NCBI GenBank assembly: GCA_050253335.1
Contig: JBFWJG010000010.1
Span: forward strand, 1-46,044
DNA length: 46,044 bases
Reading direction: 5' to 3'
From: Deferribacterales bacterium
GTDB lineage: Bacteria; Chrysiogenota; Deferribacteres; Deferribacterales; Geovibrionaceae
Shown: one piece after another, positions 3,114 through 45,996 of the stretch
Layout of the letters: the number at the start of each line of letters is the position of its first letter
Position numbering within the stretch: position 1 is the stretch's first letter
Position numbers and translations under genes: made by a program
Notes under the pieces: generated by a model
Databases searched by the model: none
Seen by the model: the letters and a program-made list of their open reading frames with translations, nothing else
What the model was told of the DNA's origin: nothing

Positions 3114-3208
3114 GGCTCGGATTTCACATCCGTGTAATTCCTCGCCACACGCTCGCGGGCGGGTAAACCGCCCTTCGCTTCGCACGGCGTGTTTCCATCC
3201 ATGGAAAC
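3114..3208. mobile_element. Structured non-coding element, type B, copy 1 (hairpin - 43-bp core - hairpin)
   Basis: Core ACACGCTCGCGGGCGGGTAAACCGCCCTTCGCTTCGCACGGCG at 3147, shared with 3331, 22931, 45784 and 45935. Mobility is inferred from dispersal. Confidence 0.7.
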
Positions 3209-3297
3209 TTAAAAGGTGCGCAGTACAAATTACAGATTAAGGAGAATTTATCATGGAACATATAAAAGGCGCAGGCGTATGCGGCTCTTGTTTTACC

Positions 3298-3392
3298 GGC
3301 TCGGATTTCACATCCGTGTAATTCCTCGCCACACGCTCGCGGGCGGGTAAACCGCCCTTCGCTTCGCACGGCGTGTTTCCATCCATGGAAAC
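3298..3392. mobile_element. Structured non-coding element, type B, copy 2
   Basis: Identical to 3114-3208. Confidence 0.7.
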
Positions 3393-3436
3393 TTAAAAGG
3401 TGCGCAGTACAAATTACAGATTAAGGAGAATTTATC

Positions 3437-4636
3437 ATGGAACATATAAAAGGCGCAGGCGTATGCGCACCTTTGGGATTTTCGGCATCGAGTGCGGTTG
3501 CGGATGTTAAGGGGAACGGCAGGGGGAAGAAGGACATGGCTCTTCTTTATTCCGAGGTTCCGTTTAATGCGGCGGCTGTTTTCACATCCAACAAGTTCTG
3601 CGCCGCTCCGGTTATTCACGGGCGGGAGCTTATCGGGAAGAAGGGTAAATTCAGCGCGATAGTTGTAAACAGCGGCAACGCCAATGCCTGTACAGGCGAG
3701 AAGGGTCTTGCCGCCTGCGGTGAGATAACTAAGGCTTTTGCCTCGGAGCTTGGTGTTGATGAAAGGGCAGTGCTTATTTCATCAACTGGTGTAATCGGCG
3801 TTCAGCTTCCTGTGGAAAAAATGACGGCTAAGGCGGGTGAGCTGATAGACGAGCTTGATTCCTCAAACTCGAATGAGTTTGCGGAAGCGATCATGACCAC
3901 TGACGCTGTGAAGAAGGAATATGCCGTACTGGTGGAGACAAAGAACGGCGCTTATGTTGTTGCTGGCGCGGCAAAGGGTGCGGGTATGATTGCCCCTTCC
4001 ATGGCTACTATGCTTGGCTTTATCACAACAGATGCGGCGGTGAAGACGGACGCATTGCAGGAAGCGCTGAACTACGCAGTGGCTGACAGCTTCAACAGCA
4101 TCACAGTTGACGGGGACATGAGCACAAATGACACGGTATTTCTGTTCGCGAACGGCATGAGCGGCATTATCCCAAACAGAGAGGAGTTCTTCGAAGCGGT
4201 GAAGACCGTGTGTGTTGAGCTTGCAAAAATGATCGTGAGGGACGGCGAAGGCGCTACCAAGTTCTGCACGTTCAAGGTCGTGAACGCGGCAACGGAAGAG
4301 GATGCGAAGAAGTGCGCCTTTGCCCTTGCCAATTCGCCTCTGGTGAAAACCATGCTCCACGGGGAAGACCCCAACTGGGGAAGAATTTTCGCAACGGTGG
4401 GCGCATGTGGCATAGCGTGCAGACAGGACAATGTTGACCTGTATTTTGAGGATCTGAAATATGCGGAGAACGGCGTGATAGTGGACTATGCCCTTGAACC
4501 TAAGGCTGCTGCGATAATGAAAAAGAAGGATATAGAGATCACTGTGGATCTGAAAGAGGGCTCGGCTTCAAAAACAGTGTACACCTGCGACTTCACGAAG
4601 GAGTACATATCCATCAACGCGGATTACAGAAGCTAG
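3437..4636 (+). CDS. argJ: Bifunctional ornithine acetyltransferase / N-acetylglutamate synthase
   Basis: VNSGNANACTG, STGVIG, KGAGMIAPSMATML (autocleavage Thr), DGDMSTND, NADYRS C-terminus. Confidence 0.97.
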   Translation: MEHIKGAGVCAPLGFSASSAVADVKGNGRGKKDMALLYSEVPFNAAAVFTSNKFCAAPVIHGRELIGKKGKFSAIVVNSGNANACTGEKGLAACGEITKAFASELGVDERAVLISSTGVIGVQLPVEKMTAKAGELIDELDSSNSNEFAEAIMTTDAVKKEYAVLVETKNGAYVVAGAAKGAGMIAPSMATMLGFITTDAAVKTDALQEALNYAVADSFNSITVDGDMSTNDTVFLFANGMSGIIPNREEFFEAVKTVCVELAKMIVRDGEGATKFCTFKVVNAATEEDAKKCAFALANSPLVKTMLHGEDPNWGRIFATVGACGIACRQDNVDLYFEDLKYAENGVIVDYALEPKAAAIMKKKDIEITVDLKEGSASKTVYTCDFTKEYISINADYRS

Positions 4637-4689
4637 ACGGCTGCGGATTCTTCAATTAAAATAAGTAGAATATATTATTTGTTATAAGC

Positions 4690-4721
4690 CTAAAAGCGGC
4701 AGGAGTTCCTGCCGCTTTTAG
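4690..4721. terminator. Bidirectional intrinsic terminator between convergent argJ and flaG
   Basis: CTAAAAGCGGCAGGA-GT-TCCTGCCGCTTTTAG perfect inverted repeat with A/T tails. Confidence 0.85.
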
Positions 4722-4746
4722 ATATTTTCAAATCTCGTTAAATTCA

Positions 4747-5130
4747 CTAAAACCTTTCGTCCAAAATCAGTCCGAGCATTTCGTCAATATTTTTGGCAAG
4801 CCTCAGGGCGTCCTCGGAAGGTATCTGCTTAACAACTTCGCCCTGCTCTTTGTCAATTATCTTGACCACAACTGCATTAAGCTGCTTCTCAACACTGAAC
4901 TCTCTTTTTACATCAAGAGATTTCAGGCTTTCATTGAGAGTTTCCACAGCTTCCTGAACTTCTTCGAAATCGGGTTTCCTTTTCTCGGAGTTCACCTTTT
5001 CGGCAGCGCTGCCGAAGAGTTTTTCATTAACCAGTTTTGTTGACTGCGAAACACTCTGAGTGGTCTGTGCTCTTGCTCCGCTGCCTGAATCAGGTGTACC
5101 TTGTTGAACGTTCTTTACAGATTCAATCAT
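4747..5130 (-). CDS. flaG: Flagellar protein FlaG
   Basis: EAVETLNE..L...EFSVE....VVKIIDKEQGEVVKQIPSEDALRLA...GLILDERF. Lies directly downstream of a flagellin. Confidence 0.93.
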   Translation of the reverse strand: MIESVKNVQQGTPDSGSGARAQTTQSVSQSTKLVNEKLFGSAAEKVNSEKRKPDFEEVQEAVETLNESLKSLDVKREFSVEKQLNAVVVKIIDKEQGEVVKQIPSEDALRLAKNIDEMLGLILDERF

Positions 5131-5155
5131 GATAGCACCTTCTCAAAGTTATAAG

Positions 5156-5184
5156 AGTCAGGCAGGTTTAAAACCTGCCTGACT
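5156..5184 (-). terminator. Hairpin between flagellin and flaG (mRNA stabiliser or partial terminator)
   Basis: AGTCAGGCAGGTT-TAA-AACCTGCCTGACT perfect stem with a weak U-tail. Confidence 0.55.
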
Positions 5185-5202
5185 TTAATTTTACTTATTT
5201 TA

Positions 5203-8200
5203 TTATCCCAGGAGTGAGAGAGCCATCTGCGGAAGGCTGTTAGCCTGAGCAAGCATACCGATGTTAGACTGCATAAGAATCTGATTCTTGGTAAACTTGG
5301 CCATTTCATCTGCCACGTCAAGGTCACGTATCCTTGATTCTGCCGCTGTCAGGTTTTCCCTTGTGGTATCAAGGCCTGTCATAGTGTACTCAAGCCTGTT
5401 GATCTGAGCACCTATTGTGGCTCTAACACCGGAAACAGTTTCCAGAGCCTTGTCGATTTTGGTGATAGATGACTGAGCAAGTTCCTGATCAATCATGTAA
5501 ACATCGTCAAGACCAAGTGAAGCTGTGTTGATCTGAGGTATGTTTGCAAGTATTGTCTGGCCTTCGTTAGCACCTATCTGCATTTCCATTGCGTTGTCCA
5601 CAAGGTGAAGCTTAAGGTTCTGGGTCTGTCCTGTTGTGCTTACGGACATAGTTTTTGATGTATCATCCCAGCTTATGTTGATGCCTACGTTGCTGTCTAT
5701 TTCAACATCAACGCCGTCAATCACGCCTCTGAGAGTATAGTCATTAACTCTGTCAGAGCCTATGAACTCACCGGTGTGAGCATCAGTAACGTTAACAGTC
5801 ATTTCGCTGTTTTCGCCTTCCTGAATGTTCACTATGGAAAGTGCTTTTATAAGGTTTTCATCGCCTATGAAGGACAGTTTGCTGTCGCTTCCGAGGCGTG
5901 CTGACTGGATAACAAATGTTCCTGCGAGAGCTTCGTTGGATTCCGCAGTAGCATTTGTGACATAATTCACAAGGTTTTCGTTAACTTCATCAGGAGTTCC
6001 GCTTGAATCAGCAGTGGCGCCCATTCCAAGAGTTACGATCGCGTTCGTAAGTTTTTCTTCCATTTCTCTGACGGTGTCATCACCTTCAAGGTAGATGGTA
6101 GTGGACTGGCCGTTACCGAACAGTGTCAGTTCCTGAGTTGTGCTGTTAGCGAATATGTTTACGCCGTCAGCGCTCACGAATCTGTCGATATCTTTCAGTT
6201 TGGTGCTGAGTCTTGCTATGCCTGTGCCGTCTGAGCCGCCGTAGGCTTTGTCAGTGAAAGCGATTGTGCTTTCAGAAGTAACAAGTTCCGCTTCGGCAAA
6301 TTTAAGCTCGATGCCGGATTTTGTAACCTCGCCTGTGTCTTCGTCAAACACAACGTTGTAAACTTCCGCTGTACCGCCGGCTTCAAGTTCAGCATCAGTG
6401 TAAGTAGCATTAACGCTTGCTCCTACTGTTGCGGATCCTGAGTAGCTTATTGATGCATCAGCAGCGCCTGCGCTTCCGTTCTGGGCTATGAAAAGTTTAG
6501 AGCCCTGACCGAGAACAGCATCAGCACCGCCGAGGTCAAACACGATGTTCTGAGAAACTGCGCCTAAGCCGAGAGTTGCAAAGTTGGCGGCAGTGAAAAC
6601 TATCTGCTCTTCAGCAAGGACTACTGTAGCGTTCATACTCGAACTTGTTTCTTCGCCTGTTTTCGCATCAACAAAATTAACTTTAAAGCTTACTGTTGTT
6701 GAAGAACCTGCTGAAGTTCTTACATCACTCAGTGCCTCGAATGTGTAGTAACCGGCGTTGCCTGTTGTTGCTGCGGCTGTGTAGGCTACTGCAACTGATG
6801 AAACAGTTGTGCCGTCTGCAGCGTAAAGACCCGCAGTTGCGGAAACAAGTGTTGCTGCGGCTGTTGTAACTGCACCGTCAACATTTACTGTCACATCGCC
6901 TTCTATAGCGTTGCCGTCGGTTGTGCTGCCGTAAGCGGCAACTATTGAACCGGGGTTGGTGATTGAAGCAGTTATGTAGCTTACGCTTTCGCCTGCTTTT
7001 GTAACAACGGTTCCTTCTGTGGCTGTAGTGCCCGCTTCGTTGCCGTCAAAGGTGAGGGTCATGGAACCAGTGGTGTAGGTTCCGTCAACTTCGTTGAACG
7101 TAAGGTGAGTAACGGAAGCTGATTTTGCTGTTTCCCCGTCAGTGTTTGTGAGTTCACCTGCACCGAAAGCAATTGTGGGGCCGTCAGCCGTGTAGTCACC
7201 GTTTACGTCGTTAAGCTGAAGAACGCCGCCGCCGTTTTCGAGTTTGTTTGCATTTTCCTTAATTTCGCCGGAAACCTGCAGAGCTACCGTGTCACCGGTG
7301 TTCATTTCCCAGCCTAAAGCAGCAGTCAGTGCGAGGTCATCGCTGAGACCGGCCGCTGTGGCAACTTCACCGAGGTTATCAGCAGTAAACGTAATAGAAG
7401 TGCCTAAAAGATCGCCTGTCACTTCTGCTGTGGTTTTTGCACCGGTTTTAGCATCAACAAATGTTACGTTGAATGTTCCGGTAGTATCTGCCGCAGTTAC
7501 GCCGTCTTCAGTAGCCTCAATAATGAACCAGCCGGAGTTTTTGGCTGTAGCGCCTGCAGTTGCAGCCGTAATATCGAAGGTAGATGCTCCGCCGTCTGCC
7601 TGATAGGAGCCGAGAACTTCCACAGAAGCGTCAACATCCGCTGTGGAGTCACTGATCTCAACTATGGCTGATTTCACGTCTCCGGTGAAGGCAGCATCAA
7701 TGATGTTGCTTGCTTCGCCTTCTATTGAAGCGAGGTTTGCGTTTGATGATGACATAACGTCTGATTTGTAGACGTTGTTTGTTCCGCCTGATACAGATAC
7801 TTCAAGGTTGTAGTTGCCTTCCGCAACTTTGCTCTTGATGATTGCATTGAGGCTTGTTGAGTCTGATGACCACAGAGCAGTGGCATCACCGTTAAGAAGT
7901 TTTTTGGTGTTGAACTCTGTTGAAGAGGATATTCTGTTGATCTCTTCTTTGAGCTGGTCAACCTCTTTCTGGATCTCTGCACGGTCGTTTGTGGTGTACG
8001 TACCGTTACCCGCCTGAACAGCAAGCTCTCTCATCCTCTGAAGCATGTCCTGAATGTTCTGCAGTCCGCCTTCAGCAGTCTGAAGGAGTGATATACCGTC
8101 CTGGGCGTTGAGTGAAGCTCTTTTGAGACCGCTTATCTGGCCTCTTAATTTCTCAGAAATAGCAAGACCGGATGCGTCGTCCGATGCCGAGTTGATTCTG

Positions 8201-8307
8201 AGACCGCTTGAAAGTCTTTCAAGGGATTTTGCTACCGCGCTGTTTGTCTGTCCCAGGTATCTCTGTGCTGTGAGTGAAGGGACGTTAGTGTTGATATACA
8301 TTGCCAT
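5203..8307 (-). CDS. fliC: Flagellin (giant, 1034 aa)
   Basis: Flagellin_N ([25 protein letters not shown]) and Flagellin_C ([30 protein letters not shown]) flank a ~700-aa Ala/Thr/Ser-rich insert. Confidence 0.97.
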   Translation of the reverse strand: MAMYINTNVPSLTAQRYLGQTNSAVAKSLERLSSGLRINSASDDASGLAISEKLRGQISGLKRASLNAQDGISLLQTAEGGLQNIQDMLQRMRELAVQAGNGTYTTNDRAEIQKEVDQLKEEINRISSSTEFNTKKLLNGDATALWSSDSTSLNAIIKSKVAEGNYNLEVSVSGGTNNVYKSDVMSSSNANLASIEGEASNIIDAAFTGDVKSAIVEISDSTADVDASVEVLGSYQADGGASTFDITAATAGATAKNSGWFIIEATEDGVTAADTTGTFNVTFVDAKTGAKTTAEVTGDLLGTSITFTADNLGEVATAAGLSDDLALTAALGWEMNTGDTVALQVSGEIKENANKLENGGGVLQLNDVNGDYTADGPTIAFGAGELTNTDGETAKSASVTHLTFNEVDGTYTTGSMTLTFDGNEAGTTATEGTVVTKAGESVSYITASITNPGSIVAAYGSTTDGNAIEGDVTVNVDGAVTTAAATLVSATAGLYAADGTTVSSVAVAYTAAATTGNAGYYTFEALSDVRTSAGSSTTVSFKVNFVDAKTGEETSSSMNATVVLAEEQIVFTAANFATLGLGAVSQNIVFDLGGADAVLGQGSKLFIAQNGSAGAADASISYSGSATVGASVNATYTDAELEAGGTAEVYNVVFDEDTGEVTKSGIELKFAEAELVTSESTIAFTDKAYGGSDGTGIARLSTKLKDIDRFVSADGVNIFANSTTQELTLFGNGQSTTIYLEGDDTVREMEEKLTNAIVTLGMGATADSSGTPDEVNENLVNYVTNATAESNEALAGTFVIQSARLGSDSKLSFIGDENLIKALSIVNIQEGENSEMTVNVTDAHTGEFIGSDRVNDYTLRGVIDGVDVEIDSNVGINISWDDTSKTMSVSTTGQTQNLKLHLVDNAMEMQIGANEGQTILANIPQINTASLGLDDVYMIDQELAQSSITKIDKALETVSGVRATIGAQINRLEYTMTGLDTTRENLTAAESRIRDLDVADEMAKFTKNQILMQSNIGMLAQANSLPQMALSLLG

Positions 8308-8352
8308 GACATCCTCCTTGCTGGCAACCGCTGGACTTCCTTGTCTGCGGCT
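8308..8352 (-). promoter_or_regulatory. Putative CsrA-binding sites in the flagellin 5' UTR
   Basis: mRNA strand has a GAC-AAGGAA-GUC hairpin and GCAAGGAGGAUG overlapping the SD. This is the two-site arrangement known for CsrA/FliW-controlled flagellins. Confidence 0.65.
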
Positions 8353-8457
8353 GGACTCATTTCTGCGAAGCCGGAATTTCCACGCCGAAAGAGGCTTCTT
8401 GAGTCCTGTTTGTTTTATTTTCAGAAGTGCTTGAAAAACCGCTTCAGCAGTAAGGGT

Positions 8458-8495
8458 AAAAAAAAAGGCCGATGGCTATTTCTAGCCATCGGCCT
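8458..8495 (-). terminator. Intrinsic terminator inside the flagellin leader
   Basis: Minus strand reads GGCCGATGGCTA-GAAA-TAGCCATCGGCC followed by T9. Confidence 0.85.
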
Positions 8496-8583
8496 GATTA
8501 TTTCAGTACCGAAACTGCATATTAAGTTTTTTCAATCTTCCTTTTTCACTTTTTCACTGTGAGATTCTGCTCACCTGAATTGT

Positions 8584-8610
8584 TTATCGGCAATCTGATA
8601 GAAAACTTTA
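8584..8610 (-). promoter_or_regulatory. Sigma28 (FliA) promoter
   Basis: Minus strand TAAA-N15-GCCGATAA, an exact consensus match. Confidence 0.9.
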
Positions 8611-8662
8611 GTTTTTTGAGCCGCTCTTTTTAAATTTTTATTTCTTATGCATCCTGCTCAAA

Positions 8663-8691
8663 TTGACTGCCTGATTCTTTTCTTATATGCT
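8663..8691 (+). promoter_or_regulatory. Putative sigma70 promoter for maf
   Basis: TTGACT-N17-TATGCT. Confidence 0.55.
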
Positions 8692-8716
8692 TAAAAAAAT
8701 CGGCAGAGGACGGAAA

Positions 8717-10633
8717 ATGATAAGAGAAAAAAACATGAAAGCACTCAAAGAGTGCCGCCCTGAACTTTATGAACTGATAAATAACACTAAACAGACGGGC
8801 AGATATAAAATAATCTCATCAGCGCACCCCACAAAATATCCGAACCTGCTGGATACGCTCACAGGAAAAACTTTTTATAATAACGCAGACCCCGTCGGCG
8901 GTTCAAAACGCCTTATCATTGATAAAAAAATAAAAGTGCCCAACCTTGCTGTCTTTTTGGGCGCAGGACTTTTTTATAACATAATAAACTATGCAGCTGT
9001 CTTCGGGACAGCGAACTCCACATACATTGTAGTGGAAAAGGACCCTGAAATCTTTGCCCTTGCCCTAAGTGTTATTGACCTTGAGCAGATAATACGCAGC
9101 AAAAATATTTTCCTGTTTGCGGGGCTTGAGGCAGACAAGCTTTACCCGCAGCTGAACACAATAATAATCTCCGGAGGCAACAAATACTTCGCCAAAGCCA
9201 TAAACTTCATAGAAGAGCCTGAGGCTTTTGCTCAAAACAAAAGCTACTACCTGCAGGCGGTGCGCACCACCGGTGAAGCGGCAAAACAGGTGCTCCTTTT
9301 CTTCGGCAACGATCCGCTGGATTCCCTTATAGGCATTGACCACACTTTTGTGAATATAAATGAAATTATCACAAACCCCGGTATAGACAGCCTCAAAGGC
9401 ATTTTTAAAGATAAAACAGGGATAGTCGTTGCTACCGGACCCTCGCTGAATAAAAATATTCACCTGCTGAAAGATCTGTACGGAAAAGCAGTTATCTGCG
9501 CGGCGGATGCTTCCGTAAGAGTTATGAAAAGCCACGGCATCAAGCCCCATATTGCCACATCCCTTGAAAGAGTGGAGGCGACAAGCAGACTTTTTGAAGG
9601 CCTGAGCGAAGAGGATGTGAAAGATGTGTTCCTTGCCGCCTGCCCCGTCATACACCCCCTGACATATGAAAATTTCAAAGGGGAGCGGATTGTTGTCTAC
9701 AGAAACTTCGCCACCTTCGAGTGGCTTAACATACCCAAAGGCACCCTTGAGATAGGCGCCTCTGCCGCTAATATGGCATTTAAGGTGCTGGAATATCTCG
9801 GCTGCAACCCAATAATACTCATCGGGCAGGATCTCGCCTTCGGGGAGGACGACCTTACCCACGCAAAGGGGAGCACATTCGGAGAAAAGGAAGAGCAATA
9901 CCACACAAAGCGTAAGATACTTACGGTTGAAGGAAACTATGTTCCCGAAATAAAAACCACAGATGTGTGGGAGATGTTCAGGAAACATTATATAAAAGAT
10001 GTGGCCAACTTTCAGGGGTGTGTAGTTAACGCTACGGAAGGCGGAGCAAAAATCCCCGGAACCCAAATAATGAGCCTTGCGGAAGCGGTTAATAAGTACA
10101 TAAAAGACACTCCGCAGGAAAATATAACGGATACCATCAAACATCACCTCCGGTATCCAAACAGAAATGATATGCTGGAACAATATTCAAAAACCCTTGA
10201 AAAGGTTACCGAAAGCATAATCTATTGCGAGAGTGCGGTGCAGAGGCTGTATGATGGCTATCTGATTACAAACCAGTATAATGATGAAATAACACAGAAT
10301 CTTGTGAACAACAAACCGTATGACCCGAAGCTCGGGCAGTCTCTCATGGCAAAAACTCTGAATATAAACACTATTTTTGATGAAAAGAACTTTTTCGAAA
10401 TCCTCATGCACTATGTGCAGTCTTACTACATCAGGACTATGGTGGAGGTAAATGGCGTTAAAGCAGGAAATGATTCTCCGGAGATCACCAATGCAAAAAT
10501 AATGGCTTTGATGAATGAGATGTTCGCAGTCATGGTGGAGCTGATTAAAAAGATGCTGAACATGCTCCATGTCCTTAAAGCTGTTCTTGAAATCAACCTG
10601 AAAAAGATAAAGGAAGAAAACGGGGAGGCTTAG
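8717..10633 (+). CDS. maf: Motility-associated factor (Maf, DUF115/MptE-like) flagellin glycosyltransferase
   Basis: IVVATGPSLNKNI, ICAADAS, LGCNPIILIGQDLAF and NATEGGAKIPG motifs. Located between flagellin and pse genes. Start placed at ATG 8717 after GAGGA. Confidence 0.88.
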   Translation: MIREKNMKALKECRPELYELINNTKQTGRYKIISSAHPTKYPNLLDTLTGKTFYNNADPVGGSKRLIIDKKIKVPNLAVFLGAGLFYNIINYAAVFGTANSTYIVVEKDPEIFALALSVIDLEQIIRSKNIFLFAGLEADKLYPQLNTIIISGGNKYFAKAINFIEEPEAFAQNKSYYLQAVRTTGEAAKQVLLFFGNDPLDSLIGIDHTFVNINEIITNPGIDSLKGIFKDKTGIVVATGPSLNKNIHLLKDLYGKAVICAADASVRVMKSHGIKPHIATSLERVEATSRLFEGLSEEDVKDVFLAACPVIHPLTYENFKGERIVVYRNFATFEWLNIPKGTLEIGASAANMAFKVLEYLGCNPIILIGQDLAFGEDDLTHAKGSTFGEKEEQYHTKRKILTVEGNYVPEIKTTDVWEMFRKHYIKDVANFQGCVVNATEGGAKIPGTQIMSLAEAVNKYIKDTPQENITDTIKHHLRYPNRNDMLEQYSKTLEKVTESIIYCESAVQRLYDGYLITNQYNDEITQNLVNNKPYDPKLGQSLMAKTLNINTIFDEKNFFEILMHYVQSYYIRTMVEVNGVKAGNDSPEITNAKIMALMNEMFAVMVELIKKMLNMLHVLKAVLEINLKKIKEENGEA

Positions 10634-10643
10634 CCTCCCTTTA

Positions 10644-11645: not shown

Positions 11646-11706
11646 CAATGTCTCCGATGAGAAAAATTTACCTTATACTTCTGATTTAGCAAATAATATT
11701 CCACGC

Positions 11707-16371: not shown

Positions 16372-16384
16372 TGACTTAAACTTA

Positions 16385-16598: not shown

Positions 16599-19500
16599 TT
16601 AACCCTGAAGAAGCTGAAGAGCCATCTGGGGTATCTGGTTAGCCTGTGCAAGCATTGCTGTGCCTGACTGGCTGAGTATCTGATACCTTGTGAATGTCGC
16701 CATCTCATCCGCTACATCAAGGTCGCGTATGCGTGATTCGGCGGCAGTCATGTTCTCTCTTGCCGTATCAAGGTTAGTGATAGTGTATTCAAGCCTGTTG
16801 ATCTGCGCACCGATTGTCGCTCTCACAGTTACAACTTTGCTGAGAGCGGCATCAATATCGGGGATTGCTCTCTGCGCATTTTTCTGTGAAACAAGGGTAA
16901 CATTCTCAATTCCAAGCCCGACTACATCAAGCTGGGGGATGGAAACTGAAATTGCCTGCCCCTGGTTCGCTCCGATCTGGAGGTCGGTGGAGTTATCAAC
17001 AATATGGAGGAAGTGTTCTTTTGACGCATCAGTAAGATTGATGCTGAATTCAATCTTCTGTGAATCCTTATTCCATGTTTCAGTAACACCGGCTCTGGAA
17101 TCCAGAACTATTTCAACACCTTCAATTATTCCGTAAACCCTGTCGTCACCGGTTTCATCAGTTCCGACAAGAATACCCGTGTGAGCATCCTTAACGGTTA
17201 CGGTTGTGGTGTTGTTTGTAGCTTCCTGAATTTCATTCAGAGACAGCGCATTTATAAGCCTCTCATCGCCGCTGAACGATATTTCGCCCTGCTCGCCTGT
17301 GAGGGCTGTCTGAATTATGAAAGTTCCGGCTACCGATTTATTGCCGCCGTTTGGATCAGCTGCGCTTTCAGTAACATAGTCTGCCAGATGTTTGTTAACA
17401 TCAGCCGATTCAGAACCCATGCCAAGTTCAATTATCGCAGCTTCAAGTTTTTTCTCAAACTCAGCAACAGTGTCATCGCCTTCAAGGTATATAGTTGCGT
17501 TTTTTCCGTTGCCCCATATGGTGAGTTCCTGCTTATTCAGGAAAACATTGTTCCCGTCAGCATCGGTAAACACGGAAATGTCTTTCAGCTTGGTGTTAAG
17601 CCTTGCTATTCCGCCGCCGTCCTCACCGCCGTAACGCACTTCATTAAAAGTGATTTGAGTCGTGCCGGTCACAATTGTTGCACCTTCACTGAACTCAAGC
17701 TCTATGCTGTTCTGGGTGTACTCACCGGTTGCGGGGTCAAAAACGACATTATGCACTTCTACCGGCTCACCTGTGGAAAGGTCTGCGGGGTCATAAGCCA
17801 CTCTTGCGCTGTTTTCTCCTGCATCATCAGTATAGCTGATTCCTGCATCGTTTGTCGGAACCTGACCGTTTGCTGTCACAAAGAACTTGGAGCCCATTCC
17901 GAGTCTGATTCCGTTTGCTCCCAGATCCCCAAGGTTAAGAGTCAGTGTGGGAGAACCGCCAACTGTGAGACCGGCCAATGCTATTGTTTCATCGTTGGCG
18001 CCGCCGTCATCTGTAACAGTTGCGTTTACAGTCTGAATCGATTCCTCACCTGTGGCAGCATCTATGAACGTTACCTTGAAGCTGATTGCTGAAGCTGCAG
18101 CGCTGACATTAACATCGCTCAAAGCTTCTATAACATAGTATCCGCCGACAGTTGCAGCCGTGAGATCTTCCACGGTAACAGCTCCGCCGTCAACGGTAGA
18201 GACTGCGGTGGTTTTGAAAAGCTGTGCGGTTCCCGCAGCAGTTGTAGGCGCACCGCTGGCACTTATTACAGTGACACTTGCACTTGTTACGCCTTCTGCG
18301 TAAGCGTCGGTTATTGAGCCGGGGTTAGTGATAGTTGCACTTATGAGGGTTATGCTCTCATTAGCTTTTGTTATCACAGTACCGGTTGTGGGGGTTGTGC
18401 CTTTTTCATCAGCAACAAAGGTTAAATTTACATTGCCGATGGTATATGTTCCGTCCTCTTCGTTGAAGTTGACGTGTGTTACATTTACGCTTGTATCAGT
18501 TTCGCCGTCTCTGTTGGTAAGCTGATCAGCACCGTAAGAAACAGTCGGACCATCGTTGCCGTGCTCTCCGTTTACGCTTGTAAGCTGAAGAACGCCGCCG
18601 CCAAGATTTGCATCATGGACAACATTATCAATGGCGCCTGAGTTTGTGAGGAGGATCTTATCCCCCTGAGCCATTGTTGAGCCTGTGCTGAGAGCAACCA
18701 CAAGATCTGCGCTCATGCCGCCTGTTGCCGCAAGAAAATCAGCATTGCCTTCAAGATCGGCCTCTGCAAAAGTCACACTGTTTGCCGCCGCCGTACCTGT
18801 GACGCCTTCAAGTGTGGCTTTTTCACCGGTTTTAGCGTTTACGAATGTAACATTGAAAGTACCGTCGGTAGGGCCTGCTGCATCGAATGTACCGTCTGCC
18901 GCCTCTATTATGAAATAGCCGGATTCAGCAGCGGTTCCTGTTACTCCGGTTGCCTCAAAGTTGGAGCCGAACTGGCCTGCAACCTTGGATTCTGCAACTG
19001 CGGTCATAGTGGCATCAGGATCGGTTATCTCAACCACGGCAGCGGTCATTGTGCCGCCGAAAGCAGCATCATAAATGTTGCTTTTCTGACCTTCGATAGA
19101 CGAGATGTTTGCATTTGCAACGGTCATGATGTCTGTTTTGTGAATTTGGTTTTGTCCAGGAAGCGTCGAAAGCTCAATTTTGTAGTTGCCTTCCGCGACA
19201 TCATCTCTGATAATCGCCTGAATTTTCTCGCTGCTTGCTGACCAGAGAGCGGTTCCGTCACCATTGAGGAGTTTTTTCGTGTTGAATTCAGTTGATGTTG
19301 AGATTCTGTTAATCTCGTCTTTAAGCTGATCAACCTCTTTCTGAAGCTCGATTCTGTCATTTGAAGTGTAGGTGCCGTTCGCGGCCTGAACTGCGAGTTC
19401 TCTCATACGCTGAAGCATGGAGCTTACTTCGCCGAGGGCGCCTTCTGCGGTCTGGAGCATGGATATACCGTCCTGAGCGTTCATTGACGCTCTTTTGAGA

Positions 19501-19679
19501 CCGGTTATCTGTCCTCTGAGTTTTTCGGATATCGCCAGGCCGGAAGCATCGTCCGCTGCGTGATTGATTCGCAGACCTGATGAGAGTCTCTCAAGAGACT
19601 TACTGAGTTGGTTCTGTGTTTGTCCGAGGTATCTCTGCGTATTCAGAGACATCACGTTCTGATAAATTGTGAGTGCCAT
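16599..19679 (-). CDS. fliC: Flagellin 2 (giant, 1026 aa)
   Basis: Flagellin N and C domains. Start MALTIYQNV at 19679 after AAGGAGG. Central region homologous to flagellin 1. Confidence 0.96.
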
Positions 19680-19763
19680 GTCATCCTCCTTGATTCTTTC
19701 AATAGAGGCATCTCGCGCTTCCTTGCGCATATTCACAATCGTACAGAACTGATCAAATCTTTA
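19680..19763 (-). promoter_or_regulatory. Weak sigma28-like promoter and CsrA-type sites of flagellin 2
   Basis: TAAA-N16-TACGATTG; GCGC-AAGGAA-GCGC hairpin; AUCAAGGAGGAU at the SD. Confidence 0.5.
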
Positions 19764-22897: not shown

Positions 22898-23039
22898 GCG
22901 TTAATCCGTACATCCTGCCTGAATTAACGCACACGCTTGCGGGCGGATAAACCGCCCTTCGCTGCGCACGGCGCAGCTTCTTCCATGAAGCTGTTAAGAA
23001 GCCGTCTTGCCTCATCTGTCCGCACATCCTGTCGGACAG
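22898..23039. mobile_element. Structured non-coding element, type B, copy 3, plus an extra CATCCTG hairpin, between uppS and cdsA
   Basis: Core at 22931. Flanking hairpins GCGTTAAT..CATCC..ATTAACGC and CAGCTTC-TTCCAT-GAAGCTG. Extra hairpin CTGTCCG-CACATCCTGT-CGGACAG at 23016-23039. Confidence 0.7.
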
Positions 23040-33922: not shown

Positions 33923-34085
33923 CAAATACCACGCCGGAAAGAAAAAAACAAACCTTTGCCGTCTGAGGGCGTCTTTAAAAGCAAGGGAACAGATATGATT
34001 TATGGATTTTATGCATTAACTGTTGTGCAGTCAGGGCATGTTGTCCTATAATTCCCCGTAAAATTTATTTCATGGAGCAGATATA

Positions 34086-38166: not shown

Positions 38167-38867
38167 TAAAAAAAATTCTCATAAACACAGCTATCTTTCT
38201 CGGGTGCAGCGCCGTATTCACGCTTTTCTTCTTTCCTTACGGAAAGGTTCTTGAATACTACGCTGAAACAGCGGCGGCAAAAGCGAATGTCAGCCTCTCC
38301 ATAGGCAAGACAGAGGCAGGCCCTTTCGGCGCCGAGCTTTCTTCCATAAAACTCAGCGAATTCACCGCTGACAAGCTTGAACTGTCCTACTCGCCTCTTT
38401 CCGTAATCACACGCAGTGCGGCAGCCAGAATAGAATCTGAGATTGTCACAGCGGAAGCAGATCACAAGGGCGGGGAAATCAGCGCAAAAGCCCTGATAGA
38501 GCTTGATAAGATACCGCAGATCGCAGAAAGCGGCCTCGGCGGAGAGGTCGGGTTCAGCATCTCTGTTAAAGACTGGAAAGGAAAAGGCACAGTCTCATCC
38601 CCCAGACTGACCATTCCTTCGGATCTGGGGCCTGTCACGTTTAATGACATAACAGGGGATATCCTGATAGAAAAACAGATGATCGGCATAACCAACCTGC
38701 AGTCGCAGGGAGCCGCAAAAATAAACCTGAACGGAAATATAAGAATAAATCAGGTGAATGCAGGAAAAAGCGTTCTGGCGCTCACAGGGACTGTCGGGGT
38801 AGCCGGAATGAACAAAAAAATCACCATTACAGGCACAGTTCTCGAACCCAGAATAACTCTTAACTAA
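38163..38867 (+). CDS. gspN: Type II secretion protein N (putative)
   Basis: TM ending FFPY, beta-rich body; last gene of the operon. Confidence 0.72.
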   Translation: MIKKILINTAIFLGCSAVFTLFFFPYGKVLEYYAETAAAKANVSLSIGKTEAGPFGAELSSIKLSEFTADKLELSYSPLSVITRSAAARIESEIVTAEADHKGGEISAKALIELDKIPQIAESGLGGEVGFSISVKDWKGKGTVSSPRLTIPSDLGPVTFNDITGDILIEKQMIGITNLQSQGAAKINLNGNIRINQVNAGKSVLALTGTVGVAGMNKKITITGTVLEPRITLN

Positions 38868-40287: not shown

Positions 40288-40317
40288 CTAAAATCCCCCG
40301 GACGCGCATTAACGCCG

Positions 40318-41178
40318 TCAGAAGCCGAGGTACTTCACCTCTTCTTCAAGCTGAACGCCCGTTTCTTTCAAAACAATTAACTTAACTTCTTCAATCAGGT
40401 TCTTAATATCTGACCCGGTAGCACCGCCAGCATTAACAATAAAATTGGCGTGCTTCTCGGAAACCATGGCTCCGCCGATGCGTTTTCCCTTTAAACCGCA
40501 CCGTTCGATGAGCTCTCCGGCGTAATGACCTTCGGGACGCTTGAAAACCGAACCGCATGAGGGATATTCCAAAGGCTGCTTCTGCAACCTTTTGCGGAGA
40601 ATCTCCTTCCTGATGCGCTCGCTTTCCGTCCTGTCCCCTTCTTCAAAGAGGAATTTCCCGCCGAGAACTATGCTGCCGCCCACTGCCGCGGTTCTGCGGT
40701 ATGAGAAACCGGCGTCAGCACCCTTCACTGTGAAAACCGAACCGTCAGAACCGAGGAGATCTATCTCGTCAGTTAACATACCGATTTCGGTTCCAAATGC
40801 ACCTGCGTTCATTGCAAGGGCACCGCCCACAGTGCCGGGAATACCGCTCATATTCTCGGCTCCGGTCATGTAAGATCTTATCGTATAAACGATCATTGAG
40901 TCAAGAAGAACTCCTGCCCCTGCATAAATTTTCTTATGTTTCTTTAAAATGTGCCGATTAAGATTACTGAGAACTATTACAAGATGATCCAAAATTTGAT
41001 CTGAGATCAACAGGTTACAGCCGCCGCCCATTATAAAATGTTCAACAGACTTTTTTTTCGCCCAATCAAGACATTCAACTAATTCTTCCGTTGTGGACGG
41101 TTCGGCAAGAAATTTTGCCGTCCCTCCGGTGCGGTAGCTTGTGTAATTTTTAAGTGATACGTTTTCACGGATTCTCAT
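40318..41178 (-). CDS. murB: UDP-N-acetylenolpyruvoylglucosamine reductase
   Basis: GGGCNLL, GIPGTVGGALAMNAGAFG, QPLEYPSCGSVFKRP, VSEKHANF. Confidence 0.96.
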   Translation of the reverse strand: MRIRENVSLKNYTSYRTGGTAKFLAEPSTTEELVECLDWAKKKSVEHFIMGGGCNLLISDQILDHLVIVLSNLNRHILKKHKKIYAGAGVLLDSMIVYTIRSYMTGAENMSGIPGTVGGALAMNAGAFGTEIGMLTDEIDLLGSDGSVFTVKGADAGFSYRRTAAVGGSIVLGGKFLFEEGDRTESERIRKEILRKRLQKQPLEYPSCGSVFKRPEGHYAGELIERCGLKGKRIGGAMVSEKHANFIVNAGGATGSDIKNLIEEVKLIVLKETGVQLEEEVKYLGF

Positions 41179-41960
41179 TTGCTGATCTTTGTTCCTTCAA
41201 GGGCATCTTTGCAGAAGCATTTTCTGTTCACTGTGTATGAATCGGGCAGAGCGCTTACGATCGCCTTGATCCTCTCTGTCGCTCCCTTCATGGTTTCCAC
41301 CACTTCCACAGTGGTTAACTTGGAATCTGATGTGCCTGCGGCGTAATTGGTGATAATGCTCACATTGGCGTAGCATATCTCTTTCTCACGCGCCAGAGGA
41401 GCTTCCGGAAAGAGAGTCATCCCCACCGTGTCCCCGCCTATGGAAGCAAAATATTTTATCTCCGCCGCCGTTTCAAGTCTGGGGCCGTTGGTGCAGACAT
41501 ACACGCCGCTGTCTTTCACCTCAACCCCTGCCCTCTGCGCACTTTCGGTAAGCAGCACTCTGAGCTCAGGACAGAAGGGCTCTGTGAAATCTATGTGGTG
41601 GATAAGACCGCCGTCATAGAAGGTATGTGCCCGTCCTGATGTCATGTCTACAGCATTTGAGGATATTACTATATCGCCGGGCTTCACGCTCTTTATTCCG
41701 CCGACCGCGGTGAAGGAGACAATGCGCTCCACGCCCAGCTTCTCAAATCCCGCTATGTTTGCCCTGTAGTTTACGCTGTGGGGCGGAATGCCGTGACTGC
41801 GACCGTGTCTGTTGAGGAAATAAAAGTCAACGCCCTTGTAGCTGAAATGCCTGTACGCATCGGAAGGAGCGCCCCACTCAGTTTCCACTGATTCCTCGCC
41901 GACAAACTCAAAACCTTCTATGTCGTAAAGTCCGCTTCCGCCTATTATGCCAAGTTTCAT
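41175..41960 (-). CDS. mtnP: S-methyl-5'-thioadenosine / purine nucleoside phosphorylase
   Basis: GIIGGSG, RHG..H..PP, NYRANI, GPRLETAAE, VGMT..PEA.LARE. Confidence 0.88.
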   Translation of the reverse strand: MKLGIIGGSGLYDIEGFEFVGEESVETEWGAPSDAYRHFSYKGVDFYFLNRHGRSHGIPPHSVNYRANIAGFEKLGVERIVSFTAVGGIKSVKPGDIVISSNAVDMTSGRAHTFYDGGLIHHIDFTEPFCPELRVLLTESAQRAGVEVKDSGVYVCTNGPRLETAAEIKYFASIGGDTVGMTLFPEAPLAREKEICYANVSIITNYAAGTSDSKLTTVEVVETMKGATERIKAIVSALPDSYTVNRKCFCKDALEGTKISK

Positions 41961-41990
41961 AATATACCCACTGTTCTGATAAGCCGATAC

Positions 41991-42647
41991 TCAGCTCTTT
42001 TCTATTCTGATAATCCTGTCGCAGGAGTTTGCTATTCCGTCTTCGTGGGTGACTATGAGGATTGTCACACCTTCATCGCGCATGAGGCGGATCATGTCCA
42101 GAACCTCATCGCTGTTTTTCTTGTCGAGGCTGCCTGTGGGTTCGTCAGCGAGAAGGATTTTCGGACTGTTCATCATAGCCCTTGCTATCGCCGTTCTCTG
42201 CTGTTCGCCTCCGGAGAGCTCCGCGGGGAAGTGCGTGGTTCTGTTTTCCAGCCCGACCTTGGTGAGCAGTTCTTTTGCCCTTTTGGCCGCGTCCTGAATG
42301 TTCATTCCGCCTATGAGGGCGGGCATCATTACATTTTCCAGTGCGGTAAAATCTTCCAGCAGATAATGAAACTGGAACACAAAACCGACATCCTTATTCC
42401 TGAACTGGTCAACCGCCTTTCCTTTAAGTTTGAGGATGTCCTCGCCCTGAAACATTATGGAGCCTGAGTCAGGCTTATCCAGACCGCCGATTATGTGCAG
42501 AAGGGTCGATTTGCCTGCTCCTGATGGGCCGACTATGGCGAGCATTTCGCCTTTGCCCACGCTCATGTTGAAGCCGCTGAGAACATTCAGCCTGTAATCC
42601 CCTTTCAGGAAGCTTTTGTTAAGATCTATTATTTCGAGCAGACTCAT
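41991..42647 (-). CDS. lolD: Lipoprotein-releasing ABC transporter ATPase
   Basis: GPSGAGKST, GFVFQFHYLL (LolD motif), LSGGEQQR, LADEPTG. Confidence 0.92.
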   Translation of the reverse strand: MSLLEIIDLNKSFLKGDYRLNVLSGFNMSVGKGEMLAIVGPSGAGKSTLLHIIGGLDKPDSGSIMFQGEDILKLKGKAVDQFRNKDVGFVFQFHYLLEDFTALENVMMPALIGGMNIQDAAKRAKELLTKVGLENRTTHFPAELSGGEQQRTAIARAMMNSPKILLADEPTGSLDKKNSDEVLDMIRLMRDEGVTILIVTHEDGIANSCDRIIRIEKS

Positions 42648-43874
42648 CTAATCACGCCTCAATGCTTCTATGGGGTCGAGCTTGGCCGACTGTCTGGCGG
42701 GAAACAGACCCGCAACATATGTGATAACCAGTGCGCAGACCGTAACCACTATGAACACCGAGGGCTCTATCTTCACGGGGATTCTGTCCATGAAGTAAAC
42801 ATCCTCCGGCAGGCTTATTAGCTTGTAGTTTTTCAGCACGAAGCAGGCTGTGTAGCCGATAACGTTGCCGAGCGCCGTCCCCACAAAGCCCACCACAAGA
42901 CCCTGACGGATGAAGATGCGGTATATGCTTTTTTCGGGTGCGCCCATGGCTCTGAGTATGGCTATGTCGCGCTTTTTATCCTTGACCGATACCGTGATCA
43001 TGCTCACCACATTGAACGAGGCGACTATGATTATCAGCGTGAGGATGATGAACATGGCTATTTTTTCCAGCTTGAGGGCTGAAAAAAGACTGCCGTTCAT
43101 GCTTATCCAGTCCCTTGACCAGTAAGGAAAGCCGAGTTCCTCTTCTATCTTTTTTGCGAGGGGGATTGCGTTTGCGAAGCTGTCCGCCTTGACGCTGAAG
43201 CCAGAGACAACATCAGTCATCCCGAAGAATTCCTGCGCCGCCTCAAGGGATATGTAGCCGAGGGAGGAGTTGTACTCATACATCCCCATGTCAAACCAAC
43301 CGGCGACCTCAAAATGCTTCATCTTGGGAACCATGCCGAAGGGGCCTTTGCGCCCGAAGGGAGAGACCATGACCACATCATCACCGGCATTGACCGCCAG
43401 CGAATGGGCTAGTTCCTTTCCGAGAACAATCTTCGGTTTCTCGCCCTTGTCAGCTATATCCAGAAACTCGCCGTCCTTCATAAACTTCTCAATGGAGGTA
43501 ACGCCGAGCTCTTTTTCAGGGATAACGCCTCGGATGATAACTCCGCTGACATTGTTCTGGCTTGTGACCAGAACCTGACTGAGGACAAACGGCGAGACCC
43601 CCGCTACCTTGTCCGTCACGCGGATTTTTGCGTCAACAAGCTGCCAGTCGCTGATGGGAGCGGCATCCAGACGGTTTACGATTATATGCGCGTTTGCGCC
43701 GAGGATCTTGTTCTGGAGATTGTCGGAGAAGCCGATCATCACGTTCAGAACAATTATAAGAGTCGCCACCCCCACCATTATGCCGATTACGGAAATGGTG
43801 GAGATGAACGAAAATATACGGTTTTTCCTGCGGGAGCGCAGATAGCGCGTGGCTATCAGATTCTCCGTTTTCAT
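42648..43874 (-). CDS. lolC: Lipoprotein-releasing ABC transporter permease (LolC/E/F)
   Basis: IA.RYLRS, MacB-PCD plus FtsX domains, IAILRAMG, LDPIEALR. Confidence 0.9.
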   Translation of the reverse strand: MKTENLIATRYLRSRRKNRIFSFISTISVIGIMVGVATLIIVLNVMIGFSDNLQNKILGANAHIIVNRLDAAPISDWQLVDAKIRVTDKVAGVSPFVLSQVLVTSQNNVSGVIIRGVIPEKELGVTSIEKFMKDGEFLDIADKGEKPKIVLGKELAHSLAVNAGDDVVMVSPFGRKGPFGMVPKMKHFEVAGWFDMGMYEYNSSLGYISLEAAQEFFGMTDVVSGFSVKADSFANAIPLAKKIEEELGFPYWSRDWISMNGSLFSALKLEKIAMFIILTLIIIVASFNVVSMITVSVKDKKRDIAILRAMGAPEKSIYRIFIRQGLVVGFVGTALGNVIGYTACFVLKNYKLISLPEDVYFMDRIPVKIEPSVFIVVTVCALVITYVAGLFPARQSAKLDPIEALRRD

Positions 43875-43875
43875 A

Positions 43876-45426
43876 TTACTCCCATTCGATTGTCGCGGGC
43901 GGTTTGGAGCTTATGTCATAGACGACACGGTTAATGCCCCTTACCTCGTTTATTATGCGGTTGGAAATTTTGCCCAGCACATCATAGGGGATGTGTGCCC
44001 AGTCCGCCGTCATGCCGTCTGAGCTGTAGACAGCCCTGATTGCGCAGGCGTTTTCATATGTTCTGCCGTCGCCCATTACGCCCACGGTATTTACAGGGAG
44101 CAGAACGGCGAAGGCCTGCCATATGGTGTTGTAAAGGTTAGCGTTGTGAAGCTCCTCGATAAAGATGGCGTCCGCCTGACGGAGAACATCGCACCTTTTC
44201 TTGGTGATCTCGCCCAGAACCCTAACGCCCAGACCGGGGCCGGGGAAAGGGTGACGGCCGACCATCACTTCCGGAAGACCGAGCTTGCGTCCGACATCCC
44301 TTACCTCATCCTTGAAGAGCTCACGGAGGGGTTCCACAAGCTGAAACTTCATATCATCCGGCAGACCGCCCACATTGTGGTGGGACTTGATTGTGGCGGA
44401 GGGGCCTTTGAAAGAGACGGATTCTATAACATCGGGGTACAGAGTGCCCTGCGCGAGGAAATCGAAATCGCCTATTTTTCTCGCCTCTTCCTCAAAAATG
44501 CGGATGAAGAGGTTGCCTATTGTCTTTCTTTTCTGCTCGGGATCGGTCACGCCCGCAAGGGCAGTGAGGAAGCGTTCCTCAGCGTCAGCCACCACGAGGT
44601 TTATCTTATAGTTTTCCCTGAATGTTTTTTCCACATACTCACGCTCATTGAGCCTGAGCAGACCGTTGTCAACAAAAACGCAGACGAGGTTATCGCCTAT
44701 TGCCTCATGGAGAAGAACGGCAACAACGGAGGAATCCACACCGCCGGAAAGACCGCAGAGAACCTTTCTGTTCCCCACTTTTTCACGGATGCGTTCAATC
44801 TCCGCCTGAATAAAGTTTTCCGTTGTCCAGATCTGTCTGCATCCGCAGATGCCCACAACGAAGTTCTCAAGGATAGTTTTGCCCTGCTCAGTGTGGGTGA
44901 CTTCGGGGTGAAACTGTATTGCGTATATTTCACGGCTGTGATGCTTCATGGCGGCGGCGGGAGCATTGTCCGTTTTTGCCACTATGTCAAAGTTTTCGGG
45001 CATTTTCTCAAGCCTGTCGCCGTGGCTCATCCATACGGTAAGCGTCCCGTTTCCTTCAAGCCCCTTGAAGAGCCTGCATGAAGGCTCATAGCTGAGAACC
45101 GCCCTGCCGTATTCCCTGTGGTTTGAGGGAGCGACAACGCCGCCGAAATGCTGTCCGGCAAGCTGCATACCGTAGCAGATGCCCAGAACGGGAAGCCCCA
45201 TCTCAAAAACACGCTCATCAACTCTGGGCGCGTCTTCTTCATAAACGCTGGAAGGGCCGCCGGAAAGGATTATGCCTTTCGCCTCGAATGCCTTTATCTT
45301 CTCAAAATCCGCGTTGCAGGGGAAAATTTCGCAGTAGACATTCGCCTCGCGCACCCTGCGTGCGATAAGCTGGGTATATTGTGAGCCGAAGTCTAGTATC
45401 AGTACCTTTTCCGAGTGAATGTCCAT
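43876..45426 (-). CDS. guaA: GMP synthase (glutamine-hydrolysing)
   Basis: [43 protein letters not shown]. Confidence 0.98.
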
Positions 45427-45486
45427 CGGTTACAAAACTCCTTTTTATAATATTCAGTGAGTTTAAGTGCTAAGATGCACACCTGA

Positions 45487-45555
45487 GCGTCATCCTGAAC
45501 GCAGTGAAGGATCTCAGGTGCTCAGGGATTCTTCGGCTTTGCCTCAGAATGACGC
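45487..45555. repeat. Palindromic REP-like element, type A, copy 1
   Basis: GCGTCATCCTGAACGCAGTGAAGGATCT...GGATTCTTCGGCTTTGCCTCAGAATGACGC branched palindrome. Confidence 0.8.
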
Positions 45556-45622
45556 ATCACAGCTTATTTAAGTGTTCACCCAGTAGTTGGGTGCTTACTT
45601 TGTTAGTTGACTGTCACGGAAA

Positions 45623-45690
45623 CGTCATCCTGAACGCAGTGAAGGATCTCAAATGCTCAGGGATTCTTCGGCTTTGCCTAAGAATGACGC
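45623..45690. repeat. Palindromic REP-like element, type A, copy 2
   Basis: Near-identical to 45487-45555. Confidence 0.8.
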
Positions 45691-45751
45691 ATCACAGCTT
45701 ATTTAAGTATTCACCCAGTAATTGGGTGCTTCCTTCGTGAGCTGACTCTCA

Positions 45752-45845
45752 ATCACAAACCGCACATCCTGTCGGTTTGTGATACACGCTCGCGGGCGGA
45801 TAAACCGCCCTTCGCTACGCACGGCGGGCTCCCGTCATGGGAGCC
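45752..45845. mobile_element. Structured non-coding element, type B, copy 4
   Basis: Core at 45784. Flanks ATCACAAACCG-CACATCCTGT-CGGTTTGTGAT and GGCTCCC-GTCAT-GGGAGCC. Confidence 0.7.
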
Positions 45846-45902
45846 TTTATAATTTAAGTATTCACCCAGTAATTGGGTGCTTCCTTCGTGATCCGACTGT
45901 CA

Positions 45903-45996
45903 ATCACAAACCGCACATCCTGTCGGTTTGTGATACACGCTCGCGGGCGGATAAACCGCCCTTCGCTACGCACGGCGGGCTCCCGTCATGGGAGCC
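45903..45996. mobile_element. Structured non-coding element, type B, copy 5
   Basis: Identical to 45752-45845. Confidence 0.7.

Follow-up and report, generated by a model that had tools for sequence, protein, structure and literature searches.

The element and its three loci in the window

The window, a stretch of 46,044 nucleotides from a Deferribacterales bacterium (contig JBFWJG010000010.1), carries a repeat of about 110 nt with three hairpins, hereafter the element, in the gaps between argC and argJ, cdsA and uppS, and guaA and guaB. A sequence-only reading had reported five copies at three loci, and we located the core at all five, each on the + strand (Table 1). Because two pairs are tandem duplicates, in units of 184 bp at argJ and 151 bp at guaB, the five copies represent three independent loci. 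A sixth copy lies past an N gap just outside the window (G000:C10:46071, where G000 denotes the source genome), and the live guaB gene lies beyond this gap as well. The name argJ was taken from NCBIfam; guaB was named from a relative, in which the orthologous tail lies upstream of guaA and has an IMPDH match. The element is real and mobile and, as a family, apparently undescribed.

At two of the loci, the copies stand beside duplicated gene termini, as the earlier reading had claimed. The argJ start recurs at 3056-3099, 3240-3283 and 3424-3467, and the guaB tail recurs in the three equal duplicates listed at 45701-46042. The possible duplication of the uppS tail was rejected: no flanking duplication was found at copy 3, the best flank repeat being 7 nt, and the segment in question is a left-hairpin fragment of another copy. 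The copies were also said to share one orientation relative to the adjacent gene body. This is true for the side of the DNA, whereas the strand on which the loops read GGA, the minus strand of the core's orientation, is antisense to argJ and sense to uppS and guaB.

The genus comprises four genomes, G000 to G003, of which G003 is a complete relative. The argJ insertion has an identical junction in all four and is absent in two other genera. At the cdsA-uppS site, G001 has three copies, G002 has part of one, G003 keeps a remnant and G004 has none. At argJ, the duplicated start is fused to the left end of the element in a 22-codon open reading frame (ORF), whose frame is kept in the relatives examined; it may be a by-product, and a leader peptide is possible.

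Table 1. Coordinates of the element copies, duplicated gene ends and neighbouring repeats in the window
Feature	Position	Strand	Details
argJ ribosome-binding site and first 10 codons, duplicate T1	3053..3099	+	
22-codon ORF	3069..3137, again 3253-3321	+	T1 fused to left end of element
Element copy 1	3100..3208	+	left end 3100, left hairpin 3115-3145, right hairpin 3190-3208
Core of copy 1	3147-3189	+	order: motif 1, middle hairpin, motif 2
Inverted argJ junction copy	3212..3222	+	complement of 3464-3474; kept in the genus's other three genomes
Second duplicate of argJ start	3237..3283	+	
Element copy 2	3284..3392	+	tandem duplicate of copy 1; core 3331-3373
Second inverted junction copy	3396..3406	+	predicted pairing with argJ codons 9-13 in mRNA
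Live argJ	3421..4636	+	includes live copy of duplicated segment; start codon 3437
Element copy 3, cdsA-uppS gap	22898..22993	+	left hairpin 22898-22930, core 22931-22973, right hairpin 22974-22993
Fragment (left end and left hairpin) of another copy	23001..23039	+	abuts uppS stop codon
Family B CGTC-tagged palindrome dimer, copy 1	45488..45554	.	
Older guaB-tail duplicate	45566..45605	-	88% identical; within family-B unit
Family B dimer, copy 2	45623..45689	.	
guaB 3' end duplicate	45701..45740	-	includes stop codon
Element copy 4	45741..45845	+	left hairpin 45752-45783, core 45784-45826, right hairpin to 45845
guaB 3' end duplicate	45852..45891	-	
Element copy 5	45892..45996	+	core 45935-45977
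guaB 3' end duplicate	46003..46042	-	then N gap, sixth copy, live gene

Structure and covariation

From left to right, the element has a T-rich, ragged end; a left hairpin with 11 + 2 pairs and a bulge of one base; motif 1; a middle hairpin of 6 pairs; motif 2, in which one position is free; and a right hairpin of 6 pairs. Two further pairs join motif 1 with motif 2. The 43-bp core, which had been described as shared, is present in all five copies but is not fixed: the 16 nt at its centre form a variable hairpin, of which 343 distinct copies (the set also used for the loop counts) show 130 variants. Across the family, only the two short motifs and the GGA loops are fixed. TCC, which is GGA on the minus strand, occurs in the left loop of 322 and in the right loop of 264 of the 343 copies. 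The claim that the outer hairpins vary from locus to locus, yet stay paired and keep TCC-containing loops, was borne out.

The left helix was paired at 94.1%, with two-sided changes at 12 of its 13 pairs, and the middle helix at 97.1%, with two-sided changes at 5 of 6; in the RNAalifold register, all 6 pairs of the right helix had such changes. None of 500 shuffles reached the covariation score, which dropped from 0.65 to 0.27 or less in slid controls. One-sided, wobble-type stem changes were scarce on either strand (G-T 47, A-C 34), a scarcity that is atypical of RNA helices. The idea that motif 2 might form a DNA mini-hairpin was disfavoured, as compensatory changes pair motif 2 with motif 1 in 3 of 63 sequences.

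Family size and distribution

An iterated profile identified 156 copies at 95 loci in G000, an assembly of 142 contigs with many copies at contig ends, and none in the reversed genome used as control; the element is therefore not a chance pattern. In G003, surveyed over 2.8 of its 3.0 Mb, 298 copies were found at 133 loci. An exact pattern matched 91, 52, 84 and 223 times in the genus's four genomes; beyond these, it matched once in a single genome and was absent from 36. Of 68 Deferribacterota genomes, at least 22 had matches to a covariance model built from 63 copies and applied to 56 candidates per genome; the matches were confined to two families (11 of 15 and 10 of 21). Diverged copies outside the genus keep the layout and often lie between a stop codon and the next ribosome-binding site. 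One diverged copy in another family (L179:1450-1750, G021) lies between apparent tRNA genes.

Outside the phylum, the same model scored 23 matches, among the 65 GTDB pattern matches listed, at no more than 21.7 bits, compared with 43-74 for five Deferribacterota controls, and we treated these 23 as chance. No element match was found in viral contigs or in phage and plasmid collections. The metagenome loci numbered 27, of which a single assembly supplied 26. In some arrays, the main element alternates with a longer variant (G000:C45:2447-2850, L211 and L296) that shares its outer GGA hairpins, has another core and gave 10 matches in G000 and 3 in G003. The literature searched, mostly without subscription papers, held no description of the element family.

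Target duplications and junctions

The outer flanks had a common direct repeat at 27 of 81 testable loci, compared with 5 of 384 gene-boundary controls. Under a stricter score, and with 16 edge loci of G000 set aside, a flank duplication was found at 15 of the 43 single-copy loci of G000 and at 14 of the 51 of G003. The length of the duplications varied between 16 and 71 bp. In 41 of 45 flank duplications, by contrast, the left junction preceded the core by 36-47 nt, 36 nt being the floor of the search. Within arrays, the spacers were a copy of the right flank 51 times and of the left flank 10 times, and 34 of the 51 right-flank spacers break 38-46 nt before the next core.

The duplicated segments (n = 62) contained a 3' gene end in 43 cases; 16 were called intergenic, 1 internal and 2 5' ends. 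Insertion at gene ends without breaking the gene had been proposed, which agrees with the 43 segments, but a duplication was present at only about a third of the loci. In 29 of the 43, the stop codon was no more than 4 nt away from the variable junction, compared with 13.7 expected, although orthologous pairs are not independent. At nine shared loci, the dead duplicate matched its own live gene at 19 of the 28 sites that differ between species. Because dead duplicates follow their own live gene, the arrays must keep expanding, collapsing or converting. Some flank duplications follow a remnant of a right hairpin and others are clean. For the 11 stretches of at least 14 extra nt at the variable junction, we found no convincing donor locus.

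The two segments called 5' ends are argJ in both genomes, and fliM is a third that the gene caller mis-called. These two genes are the sole 5'-end duplications found, with the start codon 64 nt past the core in both. Both also carry, a few bases past the right hairpin, a 10-12-nt reverse complement of the junction-spanning target. Such an inverted junction copy was present at 3 of 53 junctions (argJ twice and fliM, thus two independent loci) compared with 0.45% in shuffled pairings, and it is conserved in relatives. It is not a general feature of the junctions, and it is predicted to pair with the coding region in the mRNA. It may be a guide, a template-switch footprint or a selected regulatory stem, among which two cases cannot discriminate.

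Gains, old copies and strand bias

Among 61 syntenic G000 loci, 51 were filled in G003 and 10 were empty; among 96 syntenic G003 loci, 44 lacked a detectable core in G000, many of them through decay. Two G003 sites, 563756 with a 26-bp duplication and 1931296 with a 23-bp duplication, have single-copy, remnant-free targets in G000, G001 and G002. As the targets are clean in three other genomes, both are gains by parsimony, and these clean empty sites demonstrate that the element moves. A third candidate gain in G003 is ambiguous because G001 has a diverged copy at that site. One metagenome copy (L300) has a 21-nt duplication and adjoins a phage tail-tube gene. The description of the element as non-autonomous, structured, covarying and mobile thus stood, with two polarised gains and no enzyme in cis. 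It was overstated with regard to mobility, in that the 51 loci common to the relative are old and vertically inherited.

Most loci are indeed old, vertically inherited and under purifying selection, antisense as much as sense. The 45 orthologous pairs agreed at 1152 of 1170 motif positions and at 763 of 853 stem pairs (20 compensated), whereas the free position was identical in 24 of 45 and fourfold-degenerate sites in 55.5%; these constraint figures are upper bounds, as near-intact motifs were required and the best pair was taken per locus. Antisense copies, including those at argJ and fliM, were as conserved as sense copies, with 233 of 234 motif positions identical and 9 of 9 sites still filled. 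This equal conservation argues for recognition at the DNA level rather than an mRNA-only role through CsrA.

The GGA strand was sense in 64 of 83 co-directional gaps in G003 and in 39 of 49 in G000, and convergent gaps held 40 of 133 element loci compared with 11% of all gaps. Moreover, the GGA strand was the leading-strand sequence at 91 of 133 loci, and the ratio of sense to antisense copies was 53:10 for leading-strand genes vs 11:9 for lagging-strand genes (Fisher P 0.013). These strand biases would fit a GGA strand that acts while single-stranded.

Neighbouring repeat families

Other repeat families accumulate in the same gaps. Of the 831 gaps in G003, 130 contain the element, which was present in 23 of 30 gaps with family B, 13 of 17 with family C and 9 of 19 with family D. 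Family B dimers flank small GIY-YIG genes, and their units repeat the gene's own tail. At four small GIY-YIG loci, family-B dimers were found and no element core; one, L173, has a diverged element on one side only. Family-B-like dimers flank small GIY-YIG genes in G002, G006 and G007, and G000 has no such gene. The two family-B dimers of the window, which belong to the guaB array, have the CGTC tag and missed the strict SRM pattern. Family C is a palindromic CCCC-AAAGGGG repeat, C-rich/G-rich, with 79 matches in G000. In G003 (L059:1330-2200), a DUF559 gene is flanked by family C and followed by a family-C tandem array, which suggests that DUF559 and family C are a second nuclease-repeat pair. 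The habit of duplicating gene tails is not exclusive to the element, as the repeats beside GIY-YIG and DUF559 genes form tandem units that bear gene tails.

The repeat mosaics may be landing sites for small cassettes. In G002, a ParD/ParE toxin-antitoxin pair lies in the guaB-guaA gap beside family-B repeats (L273:187-697), and a nucleotidyltransferase-type gene adjoins an element copy in G000 (G000:C80). In the window, a hairpin repeat of family D with poly-T/poly-A stems lies upstream of the argJ array (2915-3040); this family has 36 pattern matches in G000. Elsewhere in the window, two flagellins of about 1030 residues (5203-8307 and 16599-19736) have a weak match to a flagellinolysin-type HExxH domain, and the two genes flank a pseudaminic-acid glycosylation cluster.

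Proposed mechanism and alternatives

The observed base of any explanation consists of a fixed three-hairpin fold, a fixed left junction, new gains, amplification of the element together with its right-hand flank, the refreshing of duplicates and constraint in either orientation. We prefer to see the element as a non-autonomous repeat that is recognized as folded single-stranded DNA (ssDNA) and spread by nick-primed copying with an enzyme acting in trans, and we give this reading about an even chance. A protein would bind the folded GGA strand when it is single-stranded, either as lagging-strand template or as the non-template strand of transcription. A nick would yield a 3' end; extension of this end would start at the left end of the element and run across it, and the strand so made would rejoin the target DNA 16-70 bp back, producing the target duplication. 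Insertions within genes would persist only where the duplication rebuilds the gene end. Intact copies could be re-amplified in place and damaged ones decay, by which the structure would be kept. Nick-primed amplification is the published model for bacterial interspersed mosaic elements (BIMEs; PMC3333891), and SsnA cuts ssDNA upstream of its own repeat (PMC11893778). By analogy with the neighbouring repeat families, the enzyme would most likely be a small, sporadically present nuclease. A second role is plausible, in which the GGA loops would be bound by CsrA.

Several observations weigh against this reading. The absence of a mobiliser from the window, noted before, was confirmed for the 40 window proteins scanned, and profiles for reverse transcriptase (RT), Y1, IS110, GIY-YIG and DUF559 genes identified no mobiliser of the element. 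No enzyme gene adjoined the element in G000 among the small ORFs listed, nor in the 2.8 Mb of G003, the G001 and G002 loci or 26 metagenome loci. Of 170 small proteins that were specific to G003 or adjacent to repeats, 149 were checked by Pfam; the families included parts of IS3-type transposases, Cas1, Mrr and toxin-antitoxin genes, and none was tied to the element. The Y1 transposase (PF01797) was found in none of the genus's four genomes and in 5 of the family's 16, IS110 in none of these 16, and a small GIY-YIG gene in G002 only among the four, where family B rather than the element flanks it. Furthermore, two thirds of the loci have no duplication, and duplications preceded by a hairpin remnant are not insertion footprints because they come from collapsed arrays. 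Random nicking followed by survival does not account for the sharpness with which stop codons coincide with the variable junction. The replication-strand effect weakens to P 0.057 with an alternative origin, and convergent and divergent gaps together (29:21, P 0.32) gave no significant bias. Per-locus constraint this strong is also expected from a host function. However, the lack of a partner gene in these assemblies is weak evidence, because such nuclease genes are patchy, with GIY-YIG in 1 of 4 and DUF559 in 2 of 4 genomes of the genus.

Host function is at the centre of the alternative that the element is a domesticated RNA element, each copy being kept because its two hairpins with GGA loops serve as binding sites for CsrA (or for a different RNA-binding protein) or make transcripts more stable, with mobility rare or historical and arrays made by host recombination. 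We consider it unlikely, and the most credible of the alternatives. The TCC-containing loops, the sense bias, the enrichment in convergent gaps and the strong constraint would all be expected from it, and csrA is present in 16 of 16 family genomes; however, csrA also occurs in families where the covariance model found no element. The commonest left loop, ACA-GGA-UGU, can be set beside the SELEX consensus RUACARGGAUGU, although high-affinity SELEX hairpins mostly had no more than 4 contiguous pairs and the stems here have 6-11 (consensus and pair number from PMC7652899). Moreover, the antisense copies at argJ and fliM and elsewhere are equally conserved, wobble pairs are nearly absent on the GGA strand, and the fixed junction and new gains are left unexplained.

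The junction geometry itself would fit a retro-element, in which an RT in trans, starting from a target nick, would copy a short GGA-strand RNA whose 3' end coincides with the fixed junction. Target-primed reverse transcription of the LINE/R2 type leaves a precise 3' junction, a ragged 5' one and a target duplication of variable length, and surplus bases at the ragged end (the 11 stretches without donor) would be expected from it. The sense bias, the stop-codon coincidence and the inverted copies at argJ and fliM suggest that the template was switched, perhaps on mRNA. We nevertheless regard a retro-element as distinctly unlikely. RVT_1 was detected in G001 and in none of G000, G002 and G003, although G003 has private gains and highly diverged RTs could escape the profile; antisense copies are equally kept; and family B, which is tied to an ssDNA nuclease, displays like duplications. 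The least probable explanation, about which we are strongly doubtful, dispenses with a dedicated enzyme: hairpins would stall forks, and slippage, template switching and RecA-dependent conversion would make the duplications, arrays and occasional ectopic copies. No mobiliser was found, single hairpin modules were swapped at 7-10 of 45 orthologous loci, several repeat families share the same gaps, and many seemingly empty sites are decayed or collapsed copies, all in line with repair by the host. The breakpoint is fixed relative to the element, however, and the duplication is one-sided (51 vs 10); invariant unpaired motifs imply a binding partner, and whole copies stand at formerly empty sites.

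A wider synthesis, which we hold to be unlikely as a whole, would place the element in an unrecognised, structure-defined class of mobile DNA that spreads by target-templated, nick-primed copying through a host or unnamed enzyme. The inverted junction copy would be a guide or footprint, the GGA loops would serve both as mobility signal and as a CsrA-linked genome-wide regulator, and TwoAYGGAY would be another branch of the class.

Significance and comparison with known systems

The route by which REP-like and TwoAYGGAY-like repeats attain copy numbers in the hundreds is still debated ground, and here the element offers measurable footprints: the fixed junction, one-sided long duplications, polarised gains, dead gene ends renewed from their live genes, and the inverted junction copy that accompanies each of the two 5'-end insertions. 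Hundreds of structured elements within core operons have been kept by selection while about 45% of fourfold-degenerate sites changed. Moreover, as the element sits beside two repeat families with nameable nuclease genes, the missing enzyme and reaction are directly testable.

The statement that the repeat matches no named family was upheld by Rfam and by the REP and SRM tag tests. Rfam 15 gave no match at the gathering score in the window and none at E<=10 over 45400-46044, and eight further loci gave one unrelated sub-threshold match. The tag tests for REP, SRM and MITEs (DDE-mobilised elements bounded by terminal inverted repeats) were made on 366 distinct copies. MITEs differ from the element, in which a 6-nt inverted end match was present in 5 of the 366 copies and the duplication is variable, 16-71 bp, rather than short and fixed. 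Closer in description are YPAL/RU-2 of Yersinia, about 170 bp long and structured, with no true terminal inverted repeats, variable target duplications of 3-26 bp, and filled and empty sites, as reviewed in PMC2229807. By that description, the element differs in its 16-71-bp duplications, variable covarying stems and tandem amplification. With Csr/Rsm-binding RNAs, it shares GGA in hairpin loops and a host that has csrA.

TwoAYGGAY (RF01731) likewise has two GGA-loop hairpins, is multi-copy and intergenic, shows swings in copy number and has adjacent REP arrays; its sources propose Csr/Rsm binding and leave its mobile-like spread unresolved (bioRxiv 10.64898/2026.09.22.753630; PMC2864571). In G000, however, the best covariance match to it scored 22.4 bits against a cut-off of 43 and was not at an element. 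The loops of the element are on outer hairpins separated by the core, not adjacent on one basal stem. GGA is present in nearly all element loops, the exact AYGGAY in 71 left and 96 right loops of the 343 copies. Whereas TwoAYGGAY forms divergent doublets, the element is tandem, with 2 opposite-strand neighbours among 133 loci.

REP, BIME and REPIN sequences, mobilized with RAYT (TnpA-REP), are non-autonomous like the element, and in both cases dispersal is followed by local amplification. Flanking sequence is part of the tandem repeats that make up REPIN clusters (PMC3116915), as it is in the arrays of the element. Unlike REPs, the element has GTAG near its end in 1 of 366 copies, does not consist of two inverted REPs, makes long gene-end duplications and has no Y1 gene in its genus. 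Ssn/SRM repeats, the CGTC-tagged REPs that go with Ssn nucleases (GIY-YIG, cd10448; PMC11893778; PMC3733652), are also oriented, hairpin-forming, intergenic and high-copy; they cluster next to genes, and only some genomes have the small nuclease. Family B of the window is of this type by its CGTC tag and has the same gene-tail duplications as the element. The element itself is without the CGTC tag, the SRM pattern occurs in 0 of 366 copies, and no flanked nuclease gene was found; its three stems vary freely, whereas SsnA lost activity once the stem sequence was changed (PMC11893778). In its mode of operation the element is comparable to REP/BIME/REPIN and Ssn/SRM, and in its loops and copy-number behaviour to TwoAYGGAY, although it fails the defining tests of each.

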